From positions 15,121 to 79,120 of the IMG/VR virus record IMGVR_UViG_3300028388_003025: DNA of 64,000 bases; one strand, 5' to 3'. Below the pieces are notes generated by a model. It was given only the letters and a program-made list of their open reading frames with translations. It was not told where the DNA came from and did not search any database. The position numbers and the translations under genes are program-made. This DNA is from a virus. Positions 4,645-28,700 of the stretch are shown in pieces (positions within the stretch are counted from its first letter, which is position 1; every line of letters starts with the position of its first letter).

Positions 4645-6426
4645 ATGGTTTTAGAAGTAGACAATTATAAGCTAGAGTACGAGGGAAATAAACTTTATCT
4701 CCCTCTTACCGACTTATTAAAGAACGAACCTCACCAGACGGAGCCATATCATCCTCAAGGTATATATATAAGAAACAAGATGGTCAGGAAGATAACTGAC
4801 CGTACCGATCTTGACCAGGCGGGCAAAGATTCCCTATTAAGGAAGTTAGACAAGCGAGTATTTACATACGACCACTTCAGGACAGACACTGGCGAACGGA
4901 TGGAGCTTCGACCTTATCAGGTAGGGCTAGCAAATACATGGGCACCTAACATAGCGAACCAATCAAGTCGATCAGTAGGTAAATCAACTTTAATCGAAGT
5001 TGAGGCACTATGGGGCGCGGAAGTATTCCCGGGGTTCCAGACATTGATAGCAACTCAGGGTGAGTCGCAGCTATATCCTATTATGGAGCGTATTATATAT
5101 AGAATAAACAATGATCCATACTTAAAGTCTCAATTGGCAAAGAAGCCGGTACGTAATCCTAAGTATCACATAGTATTCAAGAACGGTCACCAGATATGGG
5201 GATCTATCGCTGGGCCAGACGGAACAAACTTTAACGGGCTTCATGTTCACAGGATATTGGTTGATGAATCGCAGATCATGACGAAGAAGGCATGGACTGA
5301 GTTATGGCGTTGTCGAAACATGGGATCGTTAACTTCAATTAGAATTATGGGCGTGCCTAACGGATTACGGGACAGAAAGTTCTTTGACCTTACTAACGAC
5401 CGCAAACATTGGGAGTGGTTTCATTTTACTCAGTGCATGTTACCTGAATCTAACTTCAATGAAGTAATTAGTGGTGCGAAGGAATATTCCGACATCGGCT
5501 ACCCTGACTTTAACAATCCTGATTTCCTTCAGCAGTTTCTTGGATTGCATGCGGTACCTAGTAGAACTGGTATTGATTTCGATGCATACCTTAAAACAAT
5601 AAAAGAATATGCTTTCTATCAGATCATTGATATACCTAGGTCAGTATTCCCAGAGATCATAACTGAAGACCCAGAACCGATTGCAAGATCGTTCATGGAC
5701 TTTGCTGGCGATCAGGTAAAGGAGATCGACCATTTTATTAAAGACGAAGGGGTTAGCAAGATATTTGCTGGGGCTGACCTTGGTTATGCATCCGACCCTA
5801 CAGAAGTAGTATTATTTTACGAAGACCCTGCTAATAACAATAAGTTAACTGCGATGTGTAGATTCCACTTCGAACGTATTGATTATCCAATCCAGTGTGC
5901 ATTACTAGAATTTTTATTCAATCGCTACCCGATAGTTCGAATGGGCATCGACCTTGGTAACAATGGTCTTGCTGTCCATCAATTCATGATGGCTAAGTCG
6001 TCAAAGTATTCCGAGCGGCTGCGAGGCTTCTTCGCCAACCAGAAGATACTAGTTGGGTACACTGCCGACGATCATGAACAGATAAGGCAGATGAAAGAGT
6101 TTACTACATCAAAGATAAACTCACTTTGCATATCTGATTCAATTACATACAAGCGAGACAAGTTCCGTACCGATCAATACTCTAATGTAGTATATAGAAT
6201 AACATCTGCAGGTAACACTGTATTTCCAAAGGGTAATGATCACATCCTTGATGCCGACAGGTGTATGGTAGCGGCATGGCACTTATATAGAGAACGCTTA
6301 GAAGAGGGTGGTGGTGAAGGAGCGCTTGATCAAAATTTCATTGCATCATTAAAGACGAAGTCACATTTATCTAACAATCCATCTGGAAGTAAGATTGCAG
6401 GTGTTGGGATATTGCCATCAGTTTAG
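4645..6426 (+). CDS. terL: Terminase large subunit
   Basis: LRPYQ adenine-binding motif, Walker A SRSVGKST, Walker B RILVDESQ, RNase H-like nuclease AGADLG...MGIDLG...DHILDA. Confidence 0.93.
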   Translation: MVLEVDNYKLEYEGNKLYLPLTDLLKNEPHQTEPYHPQGIYIRNKMVRKITDRTDLDQAGKDSLLRKLDKRVFTYDHFRTDTGERMELRPYQVGLANTWAPNIANQSSRSVGKSTLIEVEALWGAEVFPGFQTLIATQGESQLYPIMERIIYRINNDPYLKSQLAKKPVRNPKYHIVFKNGHQIWGSIAGPDGTNFNGLHVHRILVDESQIMTKKAWTELWRCRNMGSLTSIRIMGVPNGLRDRKFFDLTNDRKHWEWFHFTQCMLPESNFNEVISGAKEYSDIGYPDFNNPDFLQQFLGLHAVPSRTGIDFDAYLKTIKEYAFYQIIDIPRSVFPEIITEDPEPIARSFMDFAGDQVKEIDHFIKDEGVSKIFAGADLGYASDPTEVVLFYEDPANNNKLTAMCRFHFERIDYPIQCALLEFLFNRYPIVRMGIDLGNNGLAVHQFMMAKSSKYSERLRGFFANQKILVGYTADDHEQIRQMKEFTTSKINSLCISDSITYKRDKFRTDQYSNVVYRITSAGNTVFPKGNDHILDADRCMVAAWHLYRERLEEGGGEGALDQNFIASLKTKSHLSNNPSGSKIAGVGILPSV

Positions 6427-6678: not shown

Positions 6679-6843
6679 ATGGCACAACAAGAAGAGTTAG
6701 TATTTATTTCGGACAGGCAGCTTGGCCTATTAAAATTTATTGAAGCCTTCGATGCCGACAGTGGAGCTATCGAAATTAGTTTTGAGAATGGCGACCCAGT
6801 TATAATCTCTATGGCAGAGAAGGAAGAGAAGGTACTTAGTTAA
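6679..6843 (+). CDS. 54-aa small protein, paralogue of 6471..6677 (absent from ORF track)
   Basis: MAQQEELVFISDRQLGLLKFIEAFDADSGAIEISFENGDPVIISMAEKEEKVLS*; aligns with IFLSKAQAELLKFMEE...IEKGEP; its TAA overlaps the portal ATG. Confidence 0.7.
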   Translation: MAQQEELVFISDRQLGLLKFIEAFDADSGAIEISFENGDPVIISMAEKEEKVLS

Positions 6844-8516
6844 TGTTTGAAGAAATAAGAAAGACTTTCAAGCCTGGTGGTTTTAATAATTTTGGGAAGC
6901 CCACCAAGGCACCAAACCCTAGACTGCCATATAGCCAAGTAAACAAGAAGCCATCTTTACTGGATAAGATAAAGAAGGTAAGACCAAAAGAAGTTACTGA
7001 ACCTGATTATATAGTAGGCAAAGGCAAGATCAATGGCATAAGACCAAAGTCACATGCAACTGACCCTGGCCTTGATGCATTAAAACAAAAAGAGACATTA
7101 TACTTCCCAACCTTCGAAGATAGTATATACACATTAACAAAAGCGAAGGCAAAGCTTTATCGCTTCATGCGAGACACTATTCCTGATATTGATGCAGGTA
7201 TCTGGGCATGGACTAGAATTTGTGACACAAAAAGAAAATTAATTATAAATGGCGGGACTGACATTCAAAAGGCTAAGGCTCTTGAGATTGTCAACATGTT
7301 GGATGAACGTTTATATGAACATGACTTCGTTAAGGCATCTGGTTTTGATTTATTATCAGGCCGTGCATTCATGGATATGTTCACTACTGGATCATCAGCT
7401 GGTGAGGTATGGATTGGCAATGGTGGTAGACAAGTTAACAAATTCCTGACAGTACCACCTGAGAGTATAAGATTTAAAAGAAAGAACAGAGTTGAAGTTG
7501 AAGCGTACCAATATTGGGAGTCTTCAAACAAACTTGCGAAGTTAAATAAGAATACCTTCATATATATGCCACTCAATCTAGAGAGTGCAGAGCTTTATGG
7601 TAAATCAATGTTAACTTCTATTCCATTCGTTTCATTAATACAAAATCAATTAATGAGAGACATGTCTGCAGCAATGCACAATGCTGGCTACACAAAGTAT
7701 CACTATTCAATGACTCCACCTCCAAAGTTGGCTGGCGAGTCAAAGGACGCATACACACAAAGAATCTCTAGCCAGTTCAATGAATTCATTATGCAAATGA
7801 CTAAACTGAATCCAGAAGACAACATTGCTACTTATGACAACATAGACGTAAAGGTTCCTAGCGGAAGCGGTGGCGGTGGCGGCAGCGCAGTAGTCTGGTA
7901 TGATTCGTATAAAGCGGTAGAGGAACAGATCATATCTGGGTTAAAGCTTGCGCCATTCATGATTGGTAGAAACTATGACACCACCGGCGAATTTGGTACA
8001 GCACAGTATGATTTAATTTTAAGAAACGCAACTGCAGTTCAAAGAATAGTTGGAAACATGCTTGCCTGGTTAGCAAACTTAGAGCTAGCAATGAAAGGTT
8101 CTCCATGCCGAGTCCAGATTGAGTATGACAACACTCGTACGGTTGGTGCGCTGTTAGAATCACAAGCTGAGCTAATGAGAACAAAAGCTACTATAATAAA
8201 GCGTAATGAAGGAATCTTATCTCAGAAAGAAACTGCCGAGGAGTTAGGCTATGATCAATACGATCATGATGGACCTAACCCTAAATTTATGAACTCGCAA
8301 ATATCAGTTGACCAAGTGGGAGACACAATGCCTACTAATGGCCAGGCTTCGCTAGACAATATGTCTGAGCAAGAGATATTAAGATTAACTGATCGTGACA
8401 TATTGGATATGAATTTAGATGCAAAGACGATTCGTGAGATTAGACTATTCAAAAGAGATGAGGCTAGCAAAAAACATAGACACATCGAAGAGACTCACGA
8501 TATTGATTTTGGCTAA
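6843..8516 (+). CDS. Portal protein
   Basis: Lies between TerL and the protease; 557 aa; portal-like segments LYGKSMLTS, EQIISGLKLAPFMIG, GILSQKETAEELG. Confidence 0.85.
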   Translation: MFEEIRKTFKPGGFNNFGKPTKAPNPRLPYSQVNKKPSLLDKIKKVRPKEVTEPDYIVGKGKINGIRPKSHATDPGLDALKQKETLYFPTFEDSIYTLTKAKAKLYRFMRDTIPDIDAGIWAWTRICDTKRKLIINGGTDIQKAKALEIVNMLDERLYEHDFVKASGFDLLSGRAFMDMFTTGSSAGEVWIGNGGRQVNKFLTVPPESIRFKRKNRVEVEAYQYWESSNKLAKLNKNTFIYMPLNLESAELYGKSMLTSIPFVSLIQNQLMRDMSAAMHNAGYTKYHYSMTPPPKLAGESKDAYTQRISSQFNEFIMQMTKLNPEDNIATYDNIDVKVPSGSGGGGGSAVVWYDSYKAVEEQIISGLKLAPFMIGRNYDTTGEFGTAQYDLILRNATAVQRIVGNMLAWLANLELAMKGSPCRVQIEYDNTRTVGALLESQAELMRTKATIIKRNEGILSQKETAEELGYDQYDHDGPNPKFMNSQISVDQVGDTMPTNGQASLDNMSEQEILRLTDRDILDMNLDAKTIREIRLFKRDEASKKHRHIEETHDIDFG

Positions 8517-8599
8517 TTTGTTATGTTATACTTTAACATATCCGAGAAGAGCGAGCGGCCTTCCGAGATACCAAATATAAAAATGGAGGTCCGCGCTTA
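8503..8599 (+). promoter_or_regulatory. Head-operon promoter (TTGATT-18-TATACT, with extended -10 TG) and 5'UTR hairpin covering the SD
   Basis: TTGATT 8503-8508, TG 8524-8525, TATACT 8527-8532; GCGGCCTTCC 8555-8564 pairs 9/10 with GGAGGTCCGC 8585-8594. Confidence 0.6.
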
Positions 8600-11341
8600 A
8601 TGGATATTAAAAACATAACCGAGCTTGTTGCACAGCGCAATGACATTTCTCTTGATCAAAAGTTTAGACAGAAGGCAGACGAAGGTGACCTTTCACTAAT
8701 AAAACAATTCGCACTAGATCAGGAGATCACAACGGAAGATGTACATGTTCGTGCAATGTACTTATGTAACGACTTAGTCGATTACTACTTTACTAGATTT
8801 GACGAAGCAGACTTGGATGCGATAGCAGAAATGCTACCTGGCCAGTCAGTTATTGTTGGACACAAGAGAGAGATGGCACCTATTGCTAGATTTTATAAAG
8901 CAGAGAAGGTAGTTCGTACTGATAAGAAATTCATTAACGAAGAGACTGGCGAAGATGTTCGTTGGATCAAAGCTTACTTCTATTGGCCAACTGGTGTAGA
9001 AGGTTCTGAAGATATGAGAAAGAAAATTGATACAGGTGTATGGAAAGAGATTTCTATATCATGGTCATATAAAAGATGCGTATGTTCTATCTGTGGCAAA
9101 GACATGTTACAAGGAATGGCTGCACTATTTGCTGACGAAGATGAAGATGTTTGTAAGCACAGACTTGGAAAACAATACGAAGGCAAACTTTGCTACGGTA
9201 CTGTAAAAGATATTACAAAAGTATTGGAAGGATCTGTTGTATTTAAAGGCGGACAAAAATTTACTGAATTAGCTTTCGTAAGATCTGCTGATGGACAAGA
9301 AGTTAATATAGAAGATGCTGATCCTGAAGTAAGAGATCTAGCTAATGGTACAATGGAATTCTATAAACAAAGAATACTAGGCGCAAATCCTGATGGCGAA
9401 CCAGCAAAGAATGAATTCAGACATATGGCAAGAGCTTTAGAAGAAGCTAAAGTATCTAGCCCAGTATGGTACAACAAAGAAATGAAAAGATTCTTCTGCG
9501 CAGAGTCAGACAGAGATATTGTTTCTTCTATAGTAGAAGGCGCAAGATTTGTTGAAGGTGTTTCTGAAACACAGGACTTCATGCGTGGCGAGTCCGAGGG
9601 AATCGTATCCTGCTTGGCTGCTCCTGTGGATAAGCAGCCTGGCATCTATTTCAAACCAACTAAGCCTCATCGTAGATATGACGAGTCAAATGAATACTAC
9701 AAGGCCGACAGATTAAGAGAGCTAGTTGGCTCTTATATGTTGTCGCCAAAGTATGATGGTATTCGTCTTACTGTTCATAAATCTGAGAACGGCGAGATCA
9801 GAATGTTTACTATGGGTGGCATGGAAGTTGCTCGCAAATTCCCAGCCATAGTAGAGCAAGTTAGAGGTTTTGATCCAAAGACTTTAATCCTTGACGGTGA
9901 ATTAGTTAGAATTAATAAAAACAAAAGAACAACTCATGCAGATGTTTCTTCATATATAAACAATCCTAACTCAGACATTGATCACAGAACATTTACATTC
10001 AAAGCTTTTGATATGGTATATCTAAATGGTGAAGATGTTTCTGAGAAACCATTATCTGAAAGAGTTCATTTATTAAACTCTAATATTCAGACTACTGCAA
10101 ATGTTAATAGAGTAGCTAACATGACTGCTCAAAGCGGTGAAGAAGTTGTTAGCATGATTGACCAAGTATCTTCTAGAGAAGGTGCTGTGATAAAAAAATC
10201 CGACGCGGCTTACGCAGAGGCTCGAACTTGGTATAAATGGAAGCGTCAAGCAGAATTTACTGCAAGAGTTTCTAAAGTTAACAAGGTAGATTCTAGCAGA
10301 TTTACATATAATATTTCTGTACTAGACGAGAAGGATAATTTGGTTGAAGTTGGCAGGACTTATCAGACTGGTGTTGAGGCAGAAGAAGGCGACAATATCA
10401 GAATGTCAGTTGCTTACATTAAAAAGAATGAAGATGGCTCATTAATGATTTCTGAGCCTAACGTAGTTTGCAAAATGTTTGAATCAATCGAGCCAGATTC
10501 TATGATTACTATAGAAAGAATCATGGAAGAGTATGACGAAGATCGTCAAGGCAAGATGAAGAAATGCCCTAAGTGTGGGATTTCTGTTGCTGCAGATGCT
10601 AAGGTTTGTCCTAAGTGTGGATATAAATTCACTGAAGACACTGGTAAGACTGATAAGAAAACAGATGAGCCTAAGGAAGAATCAGATGATTCTAAATCTA
10701 TAGTTGATGACCCTAACAAAACAACTTATAGAATAGAACACCATTGGGATTCTGCAGAGCAATTCAGAATTCTTGAAATTAATAAAGAAGGAAGATATTT
10801 CAACGTCGTTATCCAAGGGGGGATCAACGACGATTTAAGCAAACGTTCAATGAAGCGTGTTGATTTACATGTTGACCTATCTATTGATGATAACAGAAAA
10901 ATCAAAACGAAAGAAAGACAGGACCTACCTGATAGAGCGTTTGCACTAGTATATATGAAGGATGGACAGAAGGTTCGTAAGCTTCCGTTACATAATAGCA
11001 AAGTTTCTTCTGGACATACCTGGACAGGCGAAGATGTTGAGAGAGCGCAGGTATCTTCTGCAGCTCAGTTGATCTCAAAGATTAAAGATGCACCAGATGC
11101 CAAGATAAGAATGGCTAAGAAGCATATCGATAAACATCTTGAAGCCTTGAATGAAGAAGGTATAGAAACGAAGAAGCGAGAAATATGTAATGGAGAAGCC
11201 AAGGTCGAGGTCTTGACAACCGGCGAGATCCGTGTAGAATTAATTAACACTAAACGTTCAGGCATTACAGAGAGATTTCTCCTGCAGCCTGTACGAATCA
11301 ATGGCAAAATTGATTACTACTACAAGGCTATCCAAAGCTAA
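8600..11341 (+). CDS. Prohead protease fused to ATP-dependent DNA ligase, a Zn ribbon and a C-terminal head-associated domain
   Basis: N-terminal LCNDLVD...VIVGH...KKIDTGVWKEISIS...CSICG...EGSVV protease pattern; ligase motifs I PKYDGIR, III LILDGEL, IIIa FKAFD, IV EGAVIK, V WYKWK, then an OB-fold-sized region; CPKCG-x8-CPKCG; LPDRAFA...RKLPLH. Confidence 0.88.
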   Translation: MDIKNITELVAQRNDISLDQKFRQKADEGDLSLIKQFALDQEITTEDVHVRAMYLCNDLVDYYFTRFDEADLDAIAEMLPGQSVIVGHKREMAPIARFYKAEKVVRTDKKFINEETGEDVRWIKAYFYWPTGVEGSEDMRKKIDTGVWKEISISWSYKRCVCSICGKDMLQGMAALFADEDEDVCKHRLGKQYEGKLCYGTVKDITKVLEGSVVFKGGQKFTELAFVRSADGQEVNIEDADPEVRDLANGTMEFYKQRILGANPDGEPAKNEFRHMARALEEAKVSSPVWYNKEMKRFFCAESDRDIVSSIVEGARFVEGVSETQDFMRGESEGIVSCLAAPVDKQPGIYFKPTKPHRRYDESNEYYKADRLRELVGSYMLSPKYDGIRLTVHKSENGEIRMFTMGGMEVARKFPAIVEQVRGFDPKTLILDGELVRINKNKRTTHADVSSYINNPNSDIDHRTFTFKAFDMVYLNGEDVSEKPLSERVHLLNSNIQTTANVNRVANMTAQSGEEVVSMIDQVSSREGAVIKKSDAAYAEARTWYKWKRQAEFTARVSKVNKVDSSRFTYNISVLDEKDNLVEVGRTYQTGVEAEEGDNIRMSVAYIKKNEDGSLMISEPNVVCKMFESIEPDSMITIERIMEEYDEDRQGKMKKCPKCGISVAADAKVCPKCGYKFTEDTGKTDKKTDEPKEESDDSKSIVDDPNKTTYRIEHHWDSAEQFRILEINKEGRYFNVVIQGGINDDLSKRSMKRVDLHVDLSIDDNRKIKTKERQDLPDRAFALVYMKDGQKVRKLPLHNSKVSSGHTWTGEDVERAQVSSAAQLISKIKDAPDAKIRMAKKHIDKHLEALNEEGIETKKREICNGEAKVEVLTTGEIRVELINTKRSGITERFLLQPVRINGKIDYYYKAIQS

Positions 11342-11371: not shown

Positions 11372-11995
11372 ATGAAAGAAGAAATGGAAAAGAGAATTAA
11401 CGAAGCAGAAGCTTTATCTGAATCATTGCTTGAAACTTCTGATAAAGAGTTTAAGCGTGAAGATGGCGAATTAGATATCGACATCGCAACAGAAAGAGTT
11501 GCTGAAGGTTCTAGAGTTATTGGAGAACTTGTTGAAGCTGTTCGCACATTGGACGCTGAGGCAGAAGAGGTTCGAAAAGAGCTTGAAGAATTAAAGCCTA
11601 AATCAGAGGCTGCTCAAGAATTGGTTCGTTCTGCACAGAATGAAACAAGAAGATTGTTGGGTGTTGTTGCTACTACAAGAAACGATGAGGATTCTAAAGC
11701 TAAGCTTGAAGATTTCAATAAGCGTGTTGAAGAAGGTAGCATTGAAGTATCTGAGGTTCTTGAACTTCAGAAGGCTGCTCGTGTTGAATATTATGACATG
11801 TTCCCACCTGCAGTAGTTACTCGTGCATTCAATCCTGATGCGTGTCCAGAATGTGGCACCGAAAGAGCTGACGGCATTGAAGAATGTAAAGAGTGTGGAT
11901 TGAAATTCGAAACTGAAGAGTCTGAAGAATCTAAAGCTGACAAAAAAGAGTCTGCTGAAAGATCTTTAAACATCGATAGTTTCAAAGTTAAATAA
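11372..11995 (+). CDS. Capsid scaffolding protein (acidic coiled coil) with Zn ribbon
   Basis: Between protease and capsid genes; E/K-rich helical; CPECG-x8-CKECG; SD aggag. Confidence 0.7.
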   Translation: MKEEMEKRINEAEALSESLLETSDKEFKREDGELDIDIATERVAEGSRVIGELVEAVRTLDAEAEEVRKELEELKPKSEAAQELVRSAQNETRRLLGVVATTRNDEDSKAKLEDFNKRVEEGSIEVSEVLELQKAARVEYYDMFPPAVVTRAFNPDACPECGTERADGIEECKECGLKFETEESEESKADKKESAERSLNIDSFKVK

Positions 11996-12009: not shown

Positions 12010-12453
12010 ATGGTTGGAATTAATGAATTTGATTTAGATAAAGCACAAGCAGATCACGTTGCTTACTTTTGCGCTAATACTGGTTTGACAGCTGCAGACG
12101 TTGGTAAACCTGCTAAGCTTGAGGCAGTGACTGCTGCTGGGGTTACAAAGGGGCTTTTCAATATTGCTGGAGATGGCGAAGCTATCTACGGTAAAATCAC
12201 TGTTATCAACGTTCTTAAGAACGATTGGAACTCTGGATCTAATGCTAGCGTTGCAAACGATGGTATTACTGTTCAGAACAAAGGGTTTGCTACATTTGAA
12301 TATGATGCTACTGGAGTTGCCTTAGCTATTGGTGAAAGTATTGTTGGAGACGCTGCTGGTAAAGTGCAAGGCGCTGGAGCAGTTGGACCACATATCGTTC
12401 ACGAGATTGATACAAACAACGAAACTTGTGTCGTTGAATTAAACGCTGGATAA
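12010..12453 (+). CDS. Head decoration / capsid cement protein
   Basis: 147-aa G/A/V-rich beta protein immediately upstream of the MCP; SD aaggagg. Confidence 0.7.
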   Translation: MVGINEFDLDKAQADHVAYFCANTGLTAADVGKPAKLEAVTAAGVTKGLFNIAGDGEAIYGKITVINVLKNDWNSGSNASVANDGITVQNKGFATFEYDATGVALAIGESIVGDAAGKVQGAGAVGPHIVHEIDTNNETCVVELNAG

Positions 12454-12467
12454 AGGAGGAGAAACTA

Positions 12468-13550
12468 ATGAATACTAAATATTTGGAAAAGATTAAAGAA
12501 TACATCGGAGCAGATGCATTCGATCTAGAACTAGGTAAAGACATTTACTCTAGAATAGGTTCTGTAGACGAGGAGTCTGGCCGCATGGTTGGATCTCTTT
12601 CTGATGCTCTAGAAATCATGGATCCTTCGGCTCCTGATTCTAAAGTAGACGCTTTTGAAAGACAGTTAATGAAGAGAGGTCTTATCGTAGATGGACCTAA
12701 CGCTGTAACTGTTGAGCGTTTTTACTCAACTGAGGACAGTGCATTATTGTTCCCAGAGTATATCGACAGACAAGTTCGTATCGGTATGCAAAACTATGGT
12801 CGTATTGATGATATCGTTGCGACAAGAACAAGAATCGATTCTGATTCTTACAAAGCTATTAGATTGGACCTAGCTTCTCAGGCTGACCAATTTAAGCTTA
12901 AGCGTGTTGGTGAGGCTTCACCTTTCCCAACTGCTACATTATCATTGAGCTCTAGCGACATTCATATTTATAAGTTTGGTCTTGAGCTTCAGTCTTCTTA
13001 CGAGTCTATGAGACGTCGTAAAGTTAACACTCTTGATATTCACCTACAACAAATTGGTGCATACATGGCAGACTCTAAATTTTCTGCAGCAGTTGATGTT
13101 GCGGTTAATGGTGACGGTAACAGTAATCCAATCGATACTGTTAACACTTCTACAACTGGTGTTCTTACTTATGAAGACTTAGTTGACTTCTGGTTTTCTA
13201 TCACTCCATACGAGATGAACAAATGGTTAGCTCGTAAGGATGTATGTACAACTATCTTAACTCTACCTGAGTTTAAAGATCCAATGGCTGGATTCACTTT
13301 CCAAAAGACTGGTGAATTGGTTACTCCATTCGGTGTACAACTTGTTCCTGATTTCACTGACACTGTTGATGCCAACAAAATCATTGGTTACGACCAAAGA
13401 AACTTCATCGAAGAAGTTTATGAGCAAGACATGTTAACTGAATCAGAAAAAATCATCTCTCGTCAATTAGAGAAGATGGTAATGTCTGAAGTAGCTGGCT
13501 ACGCTAAATTGTTTAACGAAGCCGGTAAGATGTTAGACATCGCTTGGTAG
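12468..13550 (+). CDS. Major capsid protein (HK97 fold)
   Basis: 360 aa; LFPEYIDRQVR, KRVGEASPFP, IYKFGLELQSSYE, ESEKIISRQ segments typical of HK97-fold MCPs; strong SD; position. Confidence 0.9.
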   Translation: MNTKYLEKIKEYIGADAFDLELGKDIYSRIGSVDEESGRMVGSLSDALEIMDPSAPDSKVDAFERQLMKRGLIVDGPNAVTVERFYSTEDSALLFPEYIDRQVRIGMQNYGRIDDIVATRTRIDSDSYKAIRLDLASQADQFKLKRVGEASPFPTATLSLSSSDIHIYKFGLELQSSYESMRRRKVNTLDIHLQQIGAYMADSKFSAAVDVAVNGDGNSNPIDTVNTSTTGVLTYEDLVDFWFSITPYEMNKWLARKDVCTTILTLPEFKDPMAGFTFQKTGELVTPFGVQLVPDFTDTVDANKIIGYDQRNFIEEVYEQDMLTESEKIISRQLEKMVMSEVAGYAKLFNEAGKMLDIAW

Positions 13551-16009: not shown

Positions 16010-18115
16010 ATGACAACTAGAATAATTCCTGGAGTATATTACGAAGAGATAGAAGATAACGTAGTATCGATTAACCAGTTGCCTTCAGGCGTTGTTGGTA
16101 TTGTTGGAACAGCAGACAAAGGTCCGCTTAATACTCCAACAAGAATAACTTCATGGGAGCAATTTATCCAAGTATTTGGAGGCTGGAGAGACGAGCTAAC
16201 TGGGCCTGCGTCTTATCTTTCTGTTCGTAGACAGGGTGTTGAAGAAATCTATTTTTCAAGAATAGCTGGCTCAACAAAAGCAAAAGCAGCACAAGACTTC
16301 AATCAGGCAGGATCGGTAAAAGCTACTTACACGCTTCCGACTCGTGCTGGTGGAGCAGGCGTTGAATCAACGTTGACACTACAAGATGATGGAGCTACTG
16401 ATCTTATAACTATAACAGCTATAGAGGCTGGCGTTAGTGAAGACAGTATTCAAATCACAATCACAGACGGAACATCAGTTGGCTATAGCAACGTATCAAT
16501 TGCTAAGACTGGATTCAATACAGAAACATATTCAAACGTAAGAGTTAAGACTGGCGACAGCAGAGACCTTACAGCACTTATTAATAATAACTCAAAATTA
16601 GTTACAGCCGTAGCGCTTGCCGATGATGAAACACTAGCTAACATAGCAGCTACACCACTTGCTGGTGGCGCCGATTCTGGTTTGGATTCAATTAGCATTA
16701 CTGCAAAACAAGCGGGCACAGAAGGAAACAGCATTACTGTTAAAGTTGATCATGGAGATACTGCTGGAAGAGTTAATGTATTGATCACTGATGGTACTAC
16801 TTCAGAGCTTTTTGAAGACGTTTATCTTGACGGTGTTGGAAATAGAAACTTAGTTGCAATAATAAATGCAACATCATCTCTTGTAACTGCAGAGCAAATT
16901 GCTACTACAGGCACAGGGCCAGATAACAATCCTCACACACAAGTGGCTACAGCTCTTGTTGGTGGAACAGCAGCAACTGTTGCATTCACTTTAACAGCTG
17001 CAGAATATGGTAAGTATGGCGATTCGCTGAAGGTTTCAATAACTGCAGCAATCTCTGGTGGATATAATATAATACTTGTTGATGCTACTACAAACGCTGT
17101 ATTGGAAACATATACCAATGTACCGTTCGCAGATGTTGTTACTACAATAAATGCATCTTCTGAATATGTTGTTGCAACTGCAGGAACATTAGCGGCACTT
17201 GAAGAAGTTGATAGCGTTTATCTTGCAGCTGGAGACAACGGCGCAACTACTGTTGATTCTGATTATATTGGAACTGTAGATGCTAACGGAAACCGAACGG
17301 GGCTATATGCACTATCAGGAGTTGATGTAATAACTATGCAGGTTGCAGCACAGCAATCTTCTACAGCAATTAACCAAGCCAATGTTTCAATATGTGAATC
17401 AGAGGGTGACAGAACTGCTATCATCTCTCTACCTAAAGATTCAACTCTTGCAGAGGTTAAGACTAAGGCAGCATTGACTGATTCTAAAATCACTCAACAA
17501 GCATGGCCATGGAAAGTTGCTACACATCCAGTTACTGGTGAAGATCTAGTTCTTGCACCTGCTGAATTTTTAGCTGGAACACTATGTGCAAATAAAGTTA
17601 ATTCATCTCCAAGCAACAAAGCAATACTTTGGGCTTATAGAGATTACAAAGAATTTGGTCCTAACTCTAATGAGATGGCTGAGCTAATACAAGCAAGAGT
17701 AGTTCCTTCCGCAAGAAAGAAATCTACACTTGATCCTACTGGAAGATTTGTATGGATGTCTGGACTTACAACAACGTCTTCTGTCCATAACAAAGACAAA
17801 CAGATTTCTGTTATCAGACCATTCTTAAACATTGTTGAAGGAATCGTAGAAGGTCTTGACCCATACGTTTCTGAAAACAATACACCATACTTGAGAGCAG
17901 CTGTTAGATATTCATCTAAGAGATATTTAGAGGGATATGTTAAGAGCGGAACTTTATCTAGCTATTCTCTTAAGTGTGACGCAAGCAACAATACAGAAGA
18001 AGATTCTCGTAACGGTTATCTGTATGTTGATATTGATTTATATTTTACTTATCCAGCAGACTTTATAACTCTTAGAGTTAAAAGAGACCCTGCCGGAAAT
18101 ATTGAAGCAGCATAA
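16010..18115 (+). CDS. Contractile tail sheath protein
   Basis: PGVYYEE...GIVGTADKGPLNTPTRITSWEQFIQVFG N-terminus; CDASNNT...GYLYVDI...PADFI C-terminus. Confidence 0.95.
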   Translation: MTTRIIPGVYYEEIEDNVVSINQLPSGVVGIVGTADKGPLNTPTRITSWEQFIQVFGGWRDELTGPASYLSVRRQGVEEIYFSRIAGSTKAKAAQDFNQAGSVKATYTLPTRAGGAGVESTLTLQDDGATDLITITAIEAGVSEDSIQITITDGTSVGYSNVSIAKTGFNTETYSNVRVKTGDSRDLTALINNNSKLVTAVALADDETLANIAATPLAGGADSGLDSISITAKQAGTEGNSITVKVDHGDTAGRVNVLITDGTTSELFEDVYLDGVGNRNLVAIINATSSLVTAEQIATTGTGPDNNPHTQVATALVGGTAATVAFTLTAAEYGKYGDSLKVSITAAISGGYNIILVDATTNAVLETYTNVPFADVVTTINASSEYVVATAGTLAALEEVDSVYLAAGDNGATTVDSDYIGTVDANGNRTGLYALSGVDVITMQVAAQQSSTAINQANVSICESEGDRTAIISLPKDSTLAEVKTKAALTDSKITQQAWPWKVATHPVTGEDLVLAPAEFLAGTLCANKVNSSPSNKAILWAYRDYKEFGPNSNEMAELIQARVVPSARKKSTLDPTGRFVWMSGLTTTSSVHNKDKQISVIRPFLNIVEGIVEGLDPYVSENNTPYLRAAVRYSSKRYLEGYVKSGTLSSYSLKCDASNNTEEDSRNGYLYVDIDLYFTYPADFITLRVKRDPAGNIEAA

Positions 18116-19793: not shown

Positions 19794-22700
19794 ATGGCTT
19801 TTGATAATATCGATGAACTTCAGTTACGCCTGCAACAACTTGAGGGCAAGATATATGGCGGCACAAGTGGCGAAGACATATTAGATCTTTTTGAAGAGAA
19901 GGAAGAACTTGAAGGAAAGCTAGCGCGTGCAAAGTCTTTTATCTCAAATACGACTGACTCTGATTATCCAAATCTATATTTAGAAAATACTATATACGAT
20001 CAAAACAAAGCAAATCTGCAGAAGATGATCTCACAGCAGGAGACAGAACTAATTCATGCTGATAATTCTTTTAAGTCAGAATCATATAAAGAATTTTTAA
20101 GAAAAGATATTTCCACAAAAAAGAAAACTATAGACAAGATGATGGGCAAGAGCGTTCCACTAACAAAAGAGTTTAGTAATTTTTATGGCGAAGACATTTC
20201 TATAAAAAATAAAACACATTCATTAATAGATACGCACGGAATAGGCAGGGCCTATCAAAGGTTTCTTAAAGATATGGAAACTGGAAAGGTCTCAAAAATA
20301 GATTCTGCTACTGGGATTGCATATGATAAAAACATGCTAACTCCTGCAGACATATTTAAAGATGCAAGATCTGCGCTTGCTGGAGCTGTAACTAACATGT
20401 CTGGCAAGAATGATGACATTGTCCCAATAATAATGGCTAGATCAAATGCATTTGATTTAGCAACTATAACAGAGGCTTTTACTGACCCGTATTCTAAGCA
20501 ATCAAGAATGGTCGACATGATAAGAGATGGTAGCGTGAAGCTAGCTGGCGATCCAATATTAGTTAACAAGTTATCTTTATACAACGCAAACAAGCTTGAA
20601 AGGCTTAATGATACTGAGATAGAGTTCTTCAGAATGATGGAAGGGAATAGGTTGAAGTTTACTCCTATCGGAGCCAGGGCTGCAATGTTTCCTGAAGGCA
20701 GAGCAACATATGTCAAGAATAGAATAACAAAAGGGAAAAATATATCAGCAATAGGATTGTCTAGACTAAGGGGGTTAGACAGCGCTGCATCATTTTCTGG
20801 CGCGTCAAATATAATCGACGAGTCGGTGACAGCCTATAACGAAGTATTTAAATACATTGCAAATAATTTCTTTGGCAACGTTGGCGCAAAGGTTGAAAGA
20901 GTTGATAGGCTTTTTGACGAAATATTTTATGGCAATCCAGAAGATGGGGCAAAAAGATTAACGAAGTTTATATCCAGAGAAAGCATTGCCCAGCCAATAA
21001 GAGAGAAGATAATTGAATCAATATATGGATACAAGCCATCTAAGAGACAAATAAGGGCTGAATATAAAAGCATATCAGAGGCTGTAATATCCTGGGTTAG
21101 AGGAGAAAGAGTATTTCCAAATACAAAAACTATAGGGACAGGATCTGAGCCAGGCAAGCAGTATATAACTGGAGATTTCAGGACAGTAATGTCTAGGTCA
21201 GCAATGAGAAAGAAAGCTACACAGAAGTTTATACCTACAGGTCACGACATGAGAGCGTTTATTAGCGCTAGAGAGTCGCAGCTTATAGAGAAAAAATTCC
21301 TGCTAAAAGAAGATAAGTGGAGTTTGTGGACTGGAATATTTACTAAAGATACTGACGAGATAAAAGAGGTTACTCAAAAGATATTAAAAGAAGAACCATA
21401 TGCTGCTCTTGGTGGTGGATTCAAATCGGCAAATAGAACTATAAACGAAATAATAAGAGCTTCATTCATGGCGGAGTCATCGCTAGACATTGACGAAGCT
21501 AGGGATATATTCCTTGCCAGCAGAGCTGCAAACTACTCTCAAGATAGTAAGAAGTTCGCTTCATATGCAAGAAGAACAAGAAGCATGGGATACGATGATT
21601 TCGTTTCTATGTCAGAAAGATTTAGAACATATAGAGGTCGCGGGGATTCATTAAGAAATTTACAAAGACTAACCCTTCAAGGCTTTAGAAATATGAATTC
21701 ATTAGAGTCTTCTGCTAAATCATATGGTTATGATGCGCTTATAAGTAGAATAGCAAAAAGTTTAGATAGAGATTTAATATTAAAGACAACAGAGTCAGAC
21801 GTAGGAATGGATATACTTGATAGTGTGAAAGGTATAAACCTTAGACAAGCTGCAGTTGAGCTGCTTTATGATCAACTGTCAGCATCTGGAGTGTCATTAA
21901 AGAATGTTAAGTCAAAGAGGGCAGAGCTTTCAAAGACAACATTGCACGGCATGATAAACCCACTACTGCTTAGAGACAGGGGAACGAATAGATTTGCTGG
22001 AAGAATGTTGTTCGATATTCCTGACAGGGCCGCAGGGCAGGTTGGTGATTTTGCTTCTGAATATTTAAAGATATTTAAAAACAACCCTGGATTATTTTCA
22101 TCAATGATGGATGTGTCTGGCTTAAACTTAATGGCGCAGCCAATGAACAAGGCTGGCGGTTTTACAAAACAGAATATAAACATGCAGCTTAACGATGCTA
22201 AGGATTTTATTTCAAAGTTTATTGATCCATCATCTGGTAAGGCTAGGCAAAATATGACGTCTAGAGACAAGGTTATGTATCGTATGTTCATAGGCCAAAG
22301 TGGATCACAAATGATTGAAGACATAGATAAATATAAGCAAAGCCTTTCTGAGGCAAGGCCAGCAATAAATGATATTGTGGCAAATGCAAATAGAAATAAT
22401 AAGCTAAAAAGAATAATGACAAATCTATCTTCAATCGATAAGGCTGATCTAAACAGGATAGATTCGACATATTCTGAAATGGTTGACAACATGAAGCTTC
22501 AGGTATCACTGCTTGGTGGCGACCCGAATTCAAAAGAGTATTCAGATTTTATAGTTGATGAATCTGCGCGGGCATTAAACAGAATAGTAATGGGTTCTAA
22601 CATGGACAATATATTTACTGCCAAGCTAAAGATGGTGCTTGATGAAAACGATTTAAAGGTTGGCAATAGGCTTGACGTTAGACGAAACACATATAGCAAT

Positions 22701-25700
22701 CTTAGGGATAAAAGGCTAATAGGTTTTGACTTAGAAACACACGGAACAAAATATTCTCAGGGCGACGTTTACCAATTTGGAGCTACAGTAAGAAGAAAGG
22801 GAAAGACTACTAACTTTGCCGTAACATTGCCATTCACGTTTAAGGAAGGCGGGAAGAGTTCTGCACTTGTTGGGGCATACACTGGAACACAAGGGCCATC
22901 AAAGAAAGATCTTAGAAGATTAAGATCATTAAACAAATATATATCTGGACTTGATCCAGATCTAGCTGGAACATATTTTGCAGCTTACAATGCAGAGTTC
23001 GACTTAAAGAAGCTAGACTCCTGGATAAATGCTGTCGAGGGTTCTGCAGATGGACTTACTGCTGACCCATACTATCAAGAGTTAAAGAAGTTTCAGAAGT
23101 TTGTTGGCAGAGCCACTAGAAGAGGGAAGACAATCGATGTATTTGATGTTGTAAAAAATGTCAGCATAAATGACAAGTCATTTAGGACGTCTACTTCTCT
23201 ATCGCAAACAAAGGTAGCGTCAATGCTTGGCATAATGTTCTCTAATGCTCATGACGCTGGTGCAGACACGAAGGCAATGATAGATGTTTTACTTGAGCTA
23301 GAAAAGAAACATGGGAACTTGTTTTCATATGGTGCACATAAGGGGAATAGATTTGTTGGCTCGGTAGAAGCTGGGGCAGGCTTCCTAGGAACAATGACAA
23401 AGATGTATGACATTGCAGATGAAGTTGCTAAGAGGCATGGGTCAAGCAATTACGAAAGAAGGCAATTCATAAAGATGATTGAAAAATCAGCTAGGTCAAC
23501 AATGACAAAAGCTGTAAGGATTGTGTCAGAGAAGTCTATGTTCGAGCACGGCAGAGGCGCCAATGTTGGCGACAGCGTGATGGATATGACCAAGGCCAGA
23601 AGGGTAGAGGTTGCACCAGAATCTGTTGGCGCAATAAAGGAAATGCTTATTGATATAGCGAGTATAGACAATAAAGATTCCTTTAGAGCTCTATTAGACA
23701 GGGGCTTCAATAGTGGGGTTAACAAGCTTTATCAAAAGGCGTACCAACTGGTAGAGGGTGATAGAGAAGTTGTTAGCCTAATGAAGTATCTGCCTACTAG
23801 AAGAACAAAAACAAGTAGCAGTCAAGTAATACAAGAAGTGGTTAAGAGGATAAGATCTGGAGCATTAACCAACACAAGGCAAATAAAGGGTGCAATGCCT
23901 AGGATTATATTTGATCTATACCTTGAAAGCATAAAGCCAAAGAAGGAATTAAGGGCGACACAGTCATTTATAAAAGGTTCATACACAGTAATGAAAGGTA
24001 TTGGCAACTCAATAATGCGACGCGGAATCCCGACAGACGCAGAGGTGGCAGAGAATGTCAGAGCCCTTAGGGCCAATAAGGCTTACTCATATATATATAA
24101 AACTGCTGGAGATATAGAAGACAGGCTAATGGCTGCTTCAAGAAAGTATATAGAACCAATAACAGAAACAATAATGAAGCCTATCAATTTCTTTGCTGAT
24201 AAGGAGTATGAAAGATTCGTTTCCTCTAAAGGATTTGGGAAGATAGACGATTTACTATCAGCATCTGGAAGCGCTGATGATATGCAGAAAGTTTTAGAAC
24301 ATAGAGCTAGACTACATAGGAACGCTTTTAAATACAAACATATAAACACTGCATTCAAGGGAGTGAAGAGTGGACTTGGTAAAGTTGGTAGAGTGATTGG
24401 GCTTGGTGGAAAGCTAGGATTAAATATTCTAGACGCATACCAATTTGCAGATTCTGTATCAATGTTGTTTGGAAAGTCTGTGCACTTAAAGGGAATGCGC
24501 CCTGTACTTATAGATTCTAAAGAGGCGGCTAGACATGCCGTTATGTCTGGTGCGTATGAAAGCGAAAAAGACTTTAATGCACAGAGAATATATGGAGCAT
24601 TTTGGACAGCAAAAGGAATAAAGATGGGCGGCACAGGCGTTAACATATTCCTAAGAGGAGCAGGCAAAGGTTTAGCCAAGGGAGCCCTAAAAGGTCTTGG
24701 TAAAAAAACAATATCAAAATTCGGTATAGGTGCTGGGCTTGCTATGATACCAGTCGTAGGCCCATTTTTAGCTGGTGCATATGGTATTGCAATGGGAATA
24801 TCAATGGCTATAGACATTGTTGGCCTTGGCCAAATGTTCATGGGTGGCCAAGGCTTTTCTACTCTAGATATATTTAGGACAGCTACAGCATATAAGTATG
24901 ATTCACTAGGTCGAGAGTACACAACTAGGGAGTGGTCTCTCTGGGCAAAGATGCGTGGTCACACTGCGCCTGGATATGCCGACGACTCTTCAAGCGGTAT
25001 AAAGCTGCTTGGTGCAGCAGCAGCAATAGCTGCATTCAATGCTCATGGATCAATGCGTACACATAATGTCTCTGATATAGAAGACTTAATGGGTGCTACA
25101 GCAAAAAGAGCATTGATAAAAGACCAGTCAAGCGCACTGCTTAATAGCCTAGAACAAGTTTTCAAAGGGGGAGTCGAAACAAAAGACAAGAAAGCTTTTA
25201 GGTCAATGTTAATTGATACACAGCGTCGCCTAAAGAAAGAGGTAGCAACAGGATTAATACCTGAATTTGAAGGTACCTCAATAAGGCGTCAGTTAGTTAA
25301 AATAAACAGGATGCATAAAGCTGGGTATGAAGGGGGCACAGTTAGCGCTGAGCTAGTAAGAACACTTGCCGATGCTAAATATTACATGATGTTCGATAAA
25401 TACAGAGGCATGAGCATCAAGCAGCGAGACTCGTTGAGACAAGTAATGTTCTCTGAAGATCTAAAGCCTTATCTAAACGAATATAAGCATGCATTGTCAA
25501 TGTCTGTTAACTATCTAACATCAGGAAGTGAAGGAAAGATAGCAGATATATTTAAAGATAATAATATGCTTGGCGAAGTAGCCTCAATTATTGGCAAGCG
25601 TGGAGACAAGAGAATAGATTCTAGTTCGTATGAACATATGGTAGATCTAGTTAAGTCTCAGTTAAAGGCAAAGACTGATAAGTTACAGAGAGTTCAAAAC

Positions 25701-28700
25701 TTAGCAACTCAAGGCAATGTTGGCTATGAGGCAAACTTACTGAGAAAGGCATACATAAGTTCTGGGTTTTATAAGTCAGATGCAGTTAAGCAATTAAAAG
25801 GAACTATAAACCTTTATGATATGACTGGCGAGTTTGGCAATCCAGGAGAATTTAAACGCTTTGTTAGTCAGTATAAAAACGTTAAGACTGCAGGGAAATG
25901 GCTTGCAACTAGTCTGTGGTTCACTCCAGTAGATAAGCTTGCTGAAGCATATTATATTGGATCGCTACCTGAAGAAGACAGAGATGAAAGGCAGAGAGCC
26001 GCTGCTGCAAAGATAATGACGTTTGGCCCACTACAGGGATTCAATGTTCTAACTGCTGGGGCAAATAAGAATTCAAGCATTCAGACTGTAATGATGAATA
26101 TGGATGCTGTTGAGGGTGTAAAGAATCCATTAGTTGGCATAATGATGTCATTTTACTTTGGCCAAAATAATGACATATATTCAAAGAGCTCAAGATATAA
26201 GTCAGGGCCATTCAAGGATGGAGGAATGCTTAGTGGGATTAAGTTAGCTACTGCAGAGGCGCTTAATACAGCAGCAACAACTACGCTTGTTGTTAAGGGT
26301 GCGGAAGTTGCTGGTGACTTTCATACTTCTAAACTATCAAAGCTAGACAATCCTACTGTATTGCTTTCATACCACAAGAACCGTATGCACTCATTTTATT
26401 CTGAAGGAAGCAATGTTAAGAAATTGAGATCACAGATAATAAAACTAAAACAATCAATCGTTGAAGGAAAGGTTGATGGAGGAGAATCTAAGAAGATAAT
26501 TAAATATTATGACAAGATGATAGCTGACTTAGATAATTTAGATTATTCAAAATTCAAGAAAGCAATTGATAAAGACTTTGCACAGATGACTGATATGATA
26601 AAGACTAGGTATAAGGATGCGAATGAACATATATTAACAAGCACTTTCAAAGAGAACATGGATGATAGTACGAAGTATATGTCGTCTTTCTATAAGTCAT
26701 TTACAATTAGAACAAGACCAGAGGGCATGCCATCTACTACCGCTACAATAATGACACAAACTATTATGAAAGGCTTAGGCCTTTCGCCTAGAGATAATCA
26801 AGCAATTAATGCTGCATTCAATTTAGGCAGCATGGCATATATGGCGCTAGCATCTGCGACAATAGCTAATGCTAATTATGGATACGACACGTATGCTACG
26901 AATGCTTATATAGATGGATTAAAAGCCTTGCATTATATGGAAGAAAATATTGCTGGAGATATAGCAAATATTCCTCTTGCAAACTTGCCAATGAATTTAA
27001 GAAAGTCACTAGGCTCATTTTTAGATGAGAGAACCAGAGAGCTTAATAAAAGCAGAACAGGAAAATTGTTAAGGCTACCTGGAATTAATAAGTCACAAAT
27101 GTTCTGGCAGGACGTAATGGGCCTTGGTCTATCAAGGGGCAATAAGAAACTTACAACAATGCAAGCTGCAACTAGAGCTGGTTATACTAGAGAGCAGGTT
27201 TTAAAAATGATCGCCCAGTATAGATCAGAAGCTCTAATGTCTCCGACCAAGAAGGTTTTATCGTATTCTGCAGAGGAAGGTAAGTTGTCTAAGCTTGGCA
27301 TTGACAATAAGATGAGGAAAAAGTTAGGCCTTGATGAATATACTTTGGATAAGATGGAAAAGCTTGCGCAGTCAGGATTGATTTCAGATCCAGGAACCTT
27401 TGTTAATAAGCGCGCATTGTTTTCATTACAGAAGAAGAAAGTCCACGGAAGCCTAACCTTCGCTGAAAAGAAATTGTATAGGGAACTAGTTGGTGCGTAT
27501 ACTGGCGGAGTAAGACAATATGAAGGTTATGAGAAGTTGTTTTACAAGCCAAGATATGGACTAGAAATGTTTGCAAAAGAGATTGAAATAAATAGCATAT
27601 ACTCAAATGCAGTTAACCCAAGCGGAAGTCTAGACTTTGCTTCGCTTCTTCAGGACGCAAGCATTAAAGAGCAACAGACATTTATGAATACAAATATGTG
27701 GACGCCGCTTCAAGATGACAATACTTCGCTTGCAGTTGAAGGCCACAAAAACTTTGTTGTTTTGTCATCACTTGCATTGTCTCGTGATCCAGACTTTAGA
27801 AAAAGATTTGAGAATATATCAAAGAAATACAACGTGGTAACTGGAACAACTGGCAAGGGTGGAATGAGAGACGCAATAAACATAGCCTCTTTCCTAATGC
27901 ATAAGAAAGGCGATTATAAGGGAGCTGCAGATATATCAGACAGGTTCTGGTTTGGAGATGCGAATAGAGCCGTTGAAGAAGCTAGGATGTTTAATCTTGG
28001 CAGTGAATACCACGACCTATGGAAGTCACAAATGAATGACGCAGAAGCTATGCGTAAGACATTATCTGATTCTGAGTTCTATGATTTTATGGTTGAGTCA
28101 TCTACATATATTGCATCTAAAGATAAAGCGCTAGCAAATTTCTTCGTTGGTTCAGATGACAAAATGCTTAAAGAGGTTAAGCGCCGAATGTTCTTTAAGT
28201 TCGGTGAAGACAAGAAGTCAATGAGGATAATGGAAGACCCAGTAACTGGCAAGGTAATATTTAAACCAGGCGGACGAAAGACGAGAAAGAGATTCGTATT
28301 CGATAGGCGTAGAAATATATTTAAAAACTATAGCTACTCAAGCGGGTTTAATGGCGCTGGGTTTAAGCCAGATAGCTATCATAACAAGATGGTTCAGGCA
28401 TACCTCAAGATAGATGAGAACTTGCTGTATACTGCACAATCATATGTTATAAGCCTAGATAAGGACGATGTAGTTCCGAAAGAAATGAAAAATGCGCACA
28501 TCGTAATCGAGCAGGGCAACGCAGAACACTCTCTTGCCTTTAATCCGGAAACAAATGAATGGCATGTTCAGGTAAGAAATATAGACCCACAACTAAACTA
28601 TGAAGAAAAGAACAGGTTCTTTACTCGCCACAACTATAAAAAACAGCTTACTGCTGAAGCGAAAACTCTTGTATCTATGAAGACAGATTTACAGGAGCTT

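Follow-up and report, generated by a model that had tools for sequence, protein, structure and literature searches.

We describe a virus gene, P0001, in which a prohead protease is followed in one reading frame by a passenger with the core of an ATP-dependent DNA ligase, a fusion that probably builds the ligase into the virus head. P0001 is located at 8600..11341 (+) of the stretch of DNA analyzed here (the window; 64,000 nucleotides, bases 15121-79120 of the 79,120-base IMG/VR virus record IMGVR_UViG_3300028388_003025, which is estimated to be 72% complete). It is a stop-free open reading frame of 913 amino acids (aa), preceded by its own ribosome-binding site (GGAGG at 8585..8589 (+), read from the sequence, 10 nucleotides before the ATG at 8600), and it occupies the protease slot between the portal gene and a scaffold-like gene, just as an earlier reading of the window (hereafter, the original prediction) had claimed. 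What is established here is which domains the protein has, that their catalytic residues are conserved, that the gene sits within a head module, and that the fusion recurs. The link that the original prediction drew between a prohead protease, a ligase and the head module is upheld by the architecture, the gene position and the recurrence of the fusion, while its description of the passenger as a complete, active ligase is weakened by a degenerate motif VI and by a phosphoesterase-like C-terminal domain that also looks degenerate.

A prohead protease outside the curated S78 families

Residues ~30-230 of P0001 (8687..9289, +), where the original prediction had placed a protease at ~8700-9290, can be confidently assigned to the prohead proteases of the assemblin/T4 gp21 fold on the basis of their modeled fold and gene position, the proteolytic activity being predicted. 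The domain matches phrog_16951 (annotated as "unknown function"; E 1.5e-31), and an exhaustive HMMER search with it recovered 1,135 cluster representatives with an E-value of 1e-3 or lower. The AlphaFold2 model of the domain, obtained with a 71-sequence alignment, has a predicted local distance difference test score (pLDDT) above 95 for residues 30-225. Comparison of this model to known structures with VIA-align gave T4 gp21 (5jbl) as the best match (Z 9.8, root-mean-square deviation 3.4, 135 residues), followed by 36 herpesvirus assemblin entries (Z 6-8.9) and then by a gap to Z 4.6. Foldseek against viral models (BFVD) retrieved prohead serine proteases, COG3740 head maturation proteases and XkdF proteins (best E 1e-15).

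At His88, Gly146, Ser152 and Glu210, none of the 71 sequences deviates, and His88 (codon 8861-8863, +), Ser152 (9053-9055) and Glu210 (9227-9229) are the candidate catalytic residues. Between the Ser strand and the Glu strand lies a Cys/His insert (C162-H187; 9083-9160, +) in which Cys162, Cys165, Cys185 and His187 are nearly invariant in the same alignment, indicating an insert of Zn type. A relative, P0023, matches Pfam Peptidase_S78 with its residues 17-157 (E 6e-9), and its His and SIGF Ser align to His88 and Ser152 of P0001; P0023 is itself a row of the alignment (A3) used in the profile comparison, so that the profile probability is inflated. No Pfam model, including S78 (PF04586) and S78_2 (PF14550), matched residues 1-340 of P0001 at E up to 5. 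The domain belongs to an unannotated subfamily with a Zn insert, outside the curated S78 models. Models of S78, S78_2 (XkdF) and ClpP (S78 and S78_2 at E up to 1) found no other protease in the 79-kb record, of which the fusion is the sole recognizable prohead protease.

The BFVD neighbors of the protease fold also include two uncultured-phage proteins annotated as ferritin/Dps-domain proteins, A0A6J5N5R9 (679 aa) and A0A6J5RFH1 (622 aa), which suggests protease-anchored cargo other than ligases.

A ligase core and OB fold with a divergent motif VI

The nucleotidyltransferase domain of an ATP-dependent DNA ligase spans residues 346-549 (9635..10246, +), of which residues 373-548 match PF01068 (E 3e-25, 89 bits against a cut-off of 26). 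In a phmmer comparison with human LIG1 (E 4e-13) motifs I, III, IIIa, IV and V are aligned, and all of them, including the catalytic Lys, are the ones listed in the original prediction: motif I is KYDGIR (9749-9766, +; Lys384 at 9749-9751), and motifs III, IIIa, IV and V are found at 9884-9907, 9998-10030, 10178-10198 and 10229-10246 (+), respectively. Across 18 fusions with an overall identity of no more than 25-30%, the residues K384, D386, G387, R389, D432, G433, E434, F470, D471, E527, G528 and K532 do not vary. The region of OB-fold size noted previously proved to be a ligase OB-fold domain (residues 550-640; 10247..10519, +), modeled with a pLDDT above 90, the Foldseek matches of which are archaeal, T4 and Pmar-Lig ligase OB domains (probability 1.0 to 2cfm, 4eq5 and 9dfa, 0.98 to 6rar and 0.97 to T4 ligase). 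The ligase of P0001 is without an N-terminal DNA-binding domain or a clamp motif.

The adjective "complete", used for this ligase in the original prediction, is justified for motifs I to V and for the OB fold but not for motif VI, the position of which (10469-10486, +) reads CKMFES in P0001. The (K)RxDK form of motif VI is kept in the relatives P0133, P0135, L004, L006, L023, P0006, P0008 and P0023, and P0034 retains the DK pair only. A variant motif VI may operate in the clade of the window, where a shifted pair of a basic and an acidic residue (K/R...E) remains. By its motifs and its OB fold, the passenger is therefore classified as a member of the ATP-dependent ligase superfamily that does not have a canonical motif VI.

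Protease and ligase are separated by a poorly conserved linker (residues 231-345; 9290..9634, +; 27-30% identity within the clade), which holds a small alpha/beta unit (~268-340) with a weak similarity to 1no5 (Z 4.6). As a lead only, this unit may be the relic of a minimal nucleotidyltransferase-like domain that is present in some relatives; the region ~268-340 of P0001 is devoid of the acidic residues of the motif of these relatives. A short domain with a GG..G.SDHD.D or GS...HDIDIL motif, as is typical of minimal Pol-beta-type nucleotidyltransferases, lies in the protease-ligase interval of P0005, P0006, P0008, P0010, P0013, P0020, P0021 and P0023, and a domain of this kind is placed after the ligase in L006:9767-13456. 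Pfam did not recognize this domain in the relatives. A minimal nucleotidyltransferase, a ligase and a phosphoesterase would form, in some of the relatives, an end-repair chain of three activities.

Recurrence and conservation of the fusion

Full-length homologs of P0001 (52-53% identity, 99% coverage) occur on independent contigs, namely the protein clusters P0002-P0004 and the viral contig L002, and the gene order of L002 (terminase, portal, fusion, scaffold-like, decoration-like, capsid) is that of the window. The original prediction had named an assembly error as a possible source of the fusion. Nothing was found in favor of an assembly or frameshift artefact that joined two separate genes, and we regard such an artefact as practically excluded, since at least four independent contigs (P0002-P0004 and L002), which are ~53% identical, show the same domain order and the same gene order, and dozens of distant fusions exist besides.

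A survey of the domain architecture in databases, as envisaged in the original prediction, showed that the fusion recurs. A ligase-like domain follows the protease in 26 of the 149 closest protease-domain representatives, the rest being mostly stand-alone proteases of 250-400 aa or forms of 450-650 aa, and at least 14 loci of Zixibacteria and Ignavibacteria (see below) carry the fusion as well. In L004 and L008, a fusion of 799 aa is located between portal and capsid homologs that are 39-40% identical to those of the window. The pairing of protease and ligase is retained in relatives that are only 25-35% identical, always adjoining portal and capsid genes. The order of the domains varies: P0023 combines a Pfam-recognized S78 protease with the ligase, L006 (1,229 aa) comprises protease, ligase, the minimal nucleotidyltransferase-like motif and phosphoesterase, and the metagenome protein P0034 (1,596 aa) carries the ligase at residues 475-652 and a C-terminal protease of XkdF type (S78_2) at residues 1465-1574. 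For L023 and L003, in which candidate motifs of an S78-type protease were read toward the C-terminus, the matches were weak (phrog_617, E 2e-7, and phrog_15531, E 0.0065, respectively), and these motifs were not used.

When P0001 is compared to P0002-P0004 domain by domain, identity falls from 68-70% in the protease to 61-63% in the nucleotidyltransferase domain, 56-63% in a module within the C-terminal domain (the LPD module, see below), ~50% in the OB domain, 36-47% in the C-terminal beta parts and, as said, 27-30% in the linker. Because the nucleotidyltransferase domain comes so close to the protease in this comparison, selection acts on the ligase core with almost the same strength as on the protease. 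In MT835508, which is the nearest gut-phage relative among the deposited records, a stand-alone protease of 304 aa is encoded directly before the capsid gene, and the ligase is therefore an acquired passenger. None of the 50,697 deposited phage records searched holds the protease and the ligase parts in one place.

Head-gene clusters in Zixibacteria and Ignavibacteria genomes

A scan of one genome per prokaryote species (loci L040-L058) detected a distant clade of the fusion (28-35% identity over residues 41-644) in about 20 metagenome-assembled genomes (MAGs) of Zixibacteria and "Ignavibacteria". At each of the 14 loci examined, a protease-ligase-phosphoesterase gene is followed by a gene of ~150 aa, a decoration-like gene of 140 aa (phrog_4588), a capsid homolog (phrog_3922) and two conserved, unannotated genes of 483 aa and 281 aa. 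The capsid homologs of the MAGs are 37-39% identical to that of the window and 75-93% identical to each other, and most of the loci have a portal homolog 3-4 kb upstream. In the complete chromosome CP070839.1 (L049), the single portal homolog lies 1.3 Mb from the fusion-capsid cluster, which is flanked by ordinary cellular genes. The terminase of the window had no homolog in five Zixibacteria/Ignavibacteria genomes, an empty answer that is not proof of absence. These clusters look like a conserved, possibly domesticated set of head genes (similar to a gene transfer agent or a capsid compartment) rather than like ordinary prophages. These clusters show that the association of ligase, protease and capsid is old and has been maintained.

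Ku (PF02735) was found neither in the 79-kb record, with its estimated completeness of 72%, nor in five fusion-carrying genomes.

A zinc ribbon and a C-terminal domain with a probable LigD ancestry

The OB fold is followed by a C4 zinc ribbon (residues 653-677; 10556..10630, +) that matches PF13248 and PF13240 above their cut-offs, in agreement with the Zn ribbon assigned to ~10565-10630 in the original prediction, and then by a linker rich in Lys, Asp and Glu (to ~10714, +). This ribbon is 46% identical over 35 aa to the one near the C-terminus of the scaffold-like protein P0270, the product of the next gene (11372-11995); in both proteins the C4 ribbon precedes a Lys/Glu-rich tail, and P0003 and P0004 have additional copies of it. 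The C-termini of scaffolds usually bind the capsid protein, and for this reason we speculate that the common ribbon is a candidate capsid-binding element; a DNA-binding element is the other candidate. The predicted complex of the capsid protein with residues 640-913 scored 0.00, with the fold of the partner being uncertain, a result that speaks neither for nor against binding.

The C-terminal beta-rich domain (residues 706-913; 10715..11338, +) has a low-confidence model: the pLDDT of residues 690-913 in AlphaFold2 is 30-50, too poor for a comparison with the phosphoesterase fold. Residues 690-913 matched nothing in Pfam at E up to 5, and a search for short stand-alone homologs of the same residues found none. 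In the more distant clade of the fusion, the same position is occupied by a LigD-type 3'-phosphoesterase (hhalign probability 99.8, E 8e-30; PF13298 with E 9e-4 to 2e-7), and the hhalign comparison of the C-terminus of the window's clade with that of the distant clade was not significant. ESM Atlas returned LigD_N clusters for residues 700-913 (features 0.86-0.87; TM score 0.41-0.46 by the query and 0.65 by the 120-aa target), matches that stand at the level of leads only. On the grounds of its position, a short motif and these language-model leads, the C-terminal domain is probably a degenerate LigD 3'-phosphoesterase-like barrel split by an inserted module. The LigD (end-healing) ancestry of the passenger, which the original prediction missed, is the best clue to the type of DNA end that would be acted on.

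The inserted module (the LPD module; residues ~771-862; 10910-11185, +) is the LPDRAFA...RKLPLH sequence that the original prediction had called a head-type domain. Both of its motifs are present (LPDRAFA at 10925-10945 and RKLPLH at 10976-10993, +), but rather than a domain of its own it is an unnamed module within the beta-rich domain, the counterpart of which is LigD phosphoesterase-like in the relatives. The module is not in Pfam, and a second ESM Atlas query with it gave no usable name. Elsewhere, P0129, a protein made of protease and scaffold, has it directly behind the protease, P0133 has two copies, and in P0135 and L004 it follows the OB domain; the module thus travels with head proteases.

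The neighborhood of the fusion gene

The head module starts with a terminase-like gene with a weak match (4645-6426) and continues with the portal gene (6843..8516, +; phrog_3753, E 7e-39) immediately upstream of the fusion. Between the protease and the capsid genes there is the scaffold-like gene (11372..11995, +), which has no family match and encodes an acidic, helix-rich protein of 207 aa with the C-terminal Zn ribbon described above; L002 encodes a homolog with 51% identity at the corresponding place. This region is completed by a small gene of the decoration-like type (12010-12453; phrog_4588) and by the gene of the major capsid protein (12468..13550, +; phrog_3922, E 3e-74; PF25209). 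Downstream of the head module a tail sheath gene (16010-18115) is located, and the phage is therefore contractile-tailed. The closest matches of the capsid protein among the deposited phage records are gut-metagenome fragments with 36-38% identity, and no close cultured relative was found among these records.

Two further genes of the record are of note. A gene for an M16 (insulinase-type) peptidase (L038:14152-15120; PF05193, E 4e-11; PF00675) runs into the start of the window and is placed upstream of the packaging genes, which is unusual for a phage. The protein in the tape-measure position (3,098 aa; 19794-29090) includes a segment (22500-23600) that matches phrog_192, "DNA polymerase exonuclease subunit" (E 6e-13). 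This segment is predicted to be DEDDh exonuclease-like and would be a second DNA-end enzyme on a virion protein, one that is normally ejected.

The fusion is the only ligase match in the 79-kb record, and no replication module was recognized in the record at its ~72% completeness. Both observations are in line with the fusion being an expression device, the protease of which would cleave itself off in the cytoplasm and leave a soluble ligase to serve late replication, recombination or the repair of concatemers. This explanation is very unlikely in our judgment, as the ligase has long stayed linked to head genes, even in cellular loci where head genes are all that is present, and several independent domain orders join the ligase to head proteases. 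The late timing is also wrong for a replicative ligase, and the N-terminal DNA-binding domain and the clamp motif are lacking.

The ligase as a proposed cargo of the head

Prohead proteases are built into the interior of the procapsid with the scaffold, and they process head proteins. Since they co-assemble inside the procapsid in this way, a fusion that is co-assembled likewise would put tens of ligase copies inside each head. Cleavage during maturation, in the poorly conserved linkers, would free the ligase, which would most likely stay with the packaged DNA and enter the host with it. In the host, it would seal genome ends or nicks before the phage genes are expressed, resulting in circularization or in the repair of nuclease damage. 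This reading, in which the protease domain serves as a loading handle and a LigD-derived ligase is placed in the head, released and injected to seal genome ends or nicks, is the one that we favor, and as a whole we consider it about as probable as all that speaks for other outcomes taken together. The encapsidation, the cleavage, the retention in the mature head, the ejection, the enzymatic activity and the substrate of the passenger are what we infer from its architecture. The LigD/phosphoesterase ancestry suggests that the substrates are DNA ends that are broken or dirty, and it would fit double-strand ends. Attachment to an internal component allows proteins to be loaded into heads; in T4, ~100 copies of green fluorescent protein per prohead were loaded via a capsid-targeting sequence (PMC10893049). 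The mycobacteriophages Omega and Corndog are reported to need LigD for the circularization of their genomes at cos sites (PMC12848934).

Several points weigh against this proposal. The canonical motif VI is lost in the clade of the window alone (CKMFES in P0001, IRVSEY in P0002-P0004), and canonical ATP-dependent ligases need this motif for self-adenylylation, as is known from work on the Chlorella virus ligase and on the capping enzyme. The C-terminus of the same clade did not match the LigD phosphoesterase significantly (hhalign probability 1.6%, E 0.03), and by our own reading of the motif its YRIEHHWD..QFR sequence, set against the canonical H..HxDxR, retains only the Arg and the first His; the second His and the Asp are lost, and two of the three metal ligands are thereby missing. 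As a rule, prohead proteases and scaffolds have been degraded and expelled by the time the DNA enters, and the passenger could leave with them. A folded passenger of ~60 kDa would have to unfold to pass the tail. The part of the genome that the record lacks may encode Ku, a further ligase or a replication module.

The loss of motif VI in this clade only raises the question of whether the passenger is still an enzyme there. A decayed ligase/phosphoesterase chain could serve as internal head mass of a scaffold-like kind or as a DNA-binding core protein, and the phosphoesterase-like and nucleotidyltransferase-like relics without catalytic residues, as well as the Zn ribbon that is common to the fusion and the scaffold-like protein, are consistent with such a role. 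A dead passenger is difficult to reconcile, however, with the retention of every active-site residue of the nucleotidyltransferase (K384, D386, G387, R389, E434, F470, D471, E527, G528, K532, K546 and K548) in four sequences that are ~53% identical overall, nor would it be expected to have a nucleotidyltransferase domain nearly as conserved as the protease. We therefore deem this explanation rather improbable.

A ligase that is loaded with the protease may instead do its work in the producing cell and not in the next host: tethered to the procapsid, it would seal nicks during packaging and then be degraded or expelled with the scaffold. The gene stands within a late head operon, proteases and scaffolds normally leave the head, and ATP is available in the cytoplasm and not in a sealed capsid. 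T4 is cited as needing DNA ligase for encapsidation (Zachary and Black 1981, as cited in PMC10893049). Against this, the protease is located inside the shell and the terminase handles the DNA outside the portal, so that the ligase would meet the DNA only after its entry; moreover, the LigD/phosphoesterase ancestry suits double-strand ends better than the nicks of concatemers, and the exonuclease-like segment in the tape-measure-position protein points to delivered enzymes. Action in the producing cell is, in our estimate, unlikely.

Returning to the favored reading of an injected ligase, a more specific version of it can be put forward tentatively, although we consider it less likely than not. 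The ligase would receive its AMP while still in the producing cell and would then be injected along with the genome, so that each copy could seal one strand independently of the ATP and the ligase of the host. With the exonuclease-like segment of the tape-measure-position protein as its partner, it would constitute a virion-borne kit for trimming and joining ends, or for repairing breaks made by restriction or CRISPR, ahead of phage gene expression. If this is true, no DNA ligase would have been shown to be injected before this one, and cargo anchored to prohead proteases would emerge as a widespread class, including that of the chromosomal head-gene clusters of Zixibacteria.

If the capsid does carry the ligase, phages can supply the cell with a DNA-sealing enzyme of their own for a process, circularization, that is usually credited to the host ligase, and the survival of phages against nuclease-based defenses in the first minutes of infection would have to be viewed anew. 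The prohead protease would be a natural loading handle for enzymes, which may be useful for the engineering of protein-delivering phage capsids.

Comparison with known systems

We know of no injected DNA ligase, and a literature search (with subscription journals outside its coverage) retrieved no paper on a fusion of a prohead protease and a DNA ligase or on a DNA ligase as a virion component. The closest concept is that of the polyvalent proteins of phages and conjugative elements. These multi-domain proteins carry a MuF, a portal or an assemblin-like peptidase domain, and Iyer, Burroughs, Anand, de Souza and Aravind proposed in 2017 that they are packaged and injected (PMC5512222). Like these proteins, the fusion joins several unrelated enzymatic domains to a head-morphogenesis domain and is encoded among virion genes. 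Unlike in the polyvalent proteins, in which the peptidase is C-terminal, it is N-terminal in the fusion, and the cargo of the fusion is a DNA ligase (PMC5512222). All three mentions of "ligase" in that paper refer to RNA ligases, and a DNA ligase or a LigD phosphoesterase is not among the passengers in the passages searched. Neither the N-terminal placement of the peptidase nor the DNA-ligase cargo was found described.

With HK97 gp4 (MEROPS S78), T4 gp21 and the herpesvirus assemblin, the fusion shares the fold, the His/Ser motifs and the gene position between portal and capsid. It differs from them by the failure to match S78 or S78_2, by the Cys/His insert and by the 680 extra residues of the passenger.

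Bacterial LigD, a ligase of nonhomologous end joining (NHEJ) with ligase, 3'-phosphoesterase and primase-polymerase domains, works with Ku. Similarly to LigD, the passenger includes a minimal ATP-dependent ligase without an N-terminal DNA-binding domain, and relatives of the fusion have a LigD_N-type phosphoesterase after the OB fold. Unlike in bacterial LigD, no primase-polymerase (AEP) domain was matched by Pfam in P0001 or in the scanned relatives, Ku was not found in the genomes named above, and the clade of the window has lost the canonical motif VI and carries what is probably a degenerate phosphoesterase. The use of LigD by Omega and Corndog embodies the same idea, that a phage needs end-joining to circularize (PMC12848934); the LigD of these phages is supplied by the host, whereas the ligase of the fusion is phage-encoded and linked to the head.

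The loading and injection proposed for the fusion have their counterparts in the T4 internal proteins and Alt, which bear a capsid-targeting sequence cut by gp21, and in the N4 virion RNA polymerase, which are enzymes loaded into the head during assembly and injected with the DNA (PMC5512222, PMC10893049). In contrast to the short targeting peptide of the T4 internal proteins and Alt, the vehicle proposed for the ligase is its covalent link to the protease itself.

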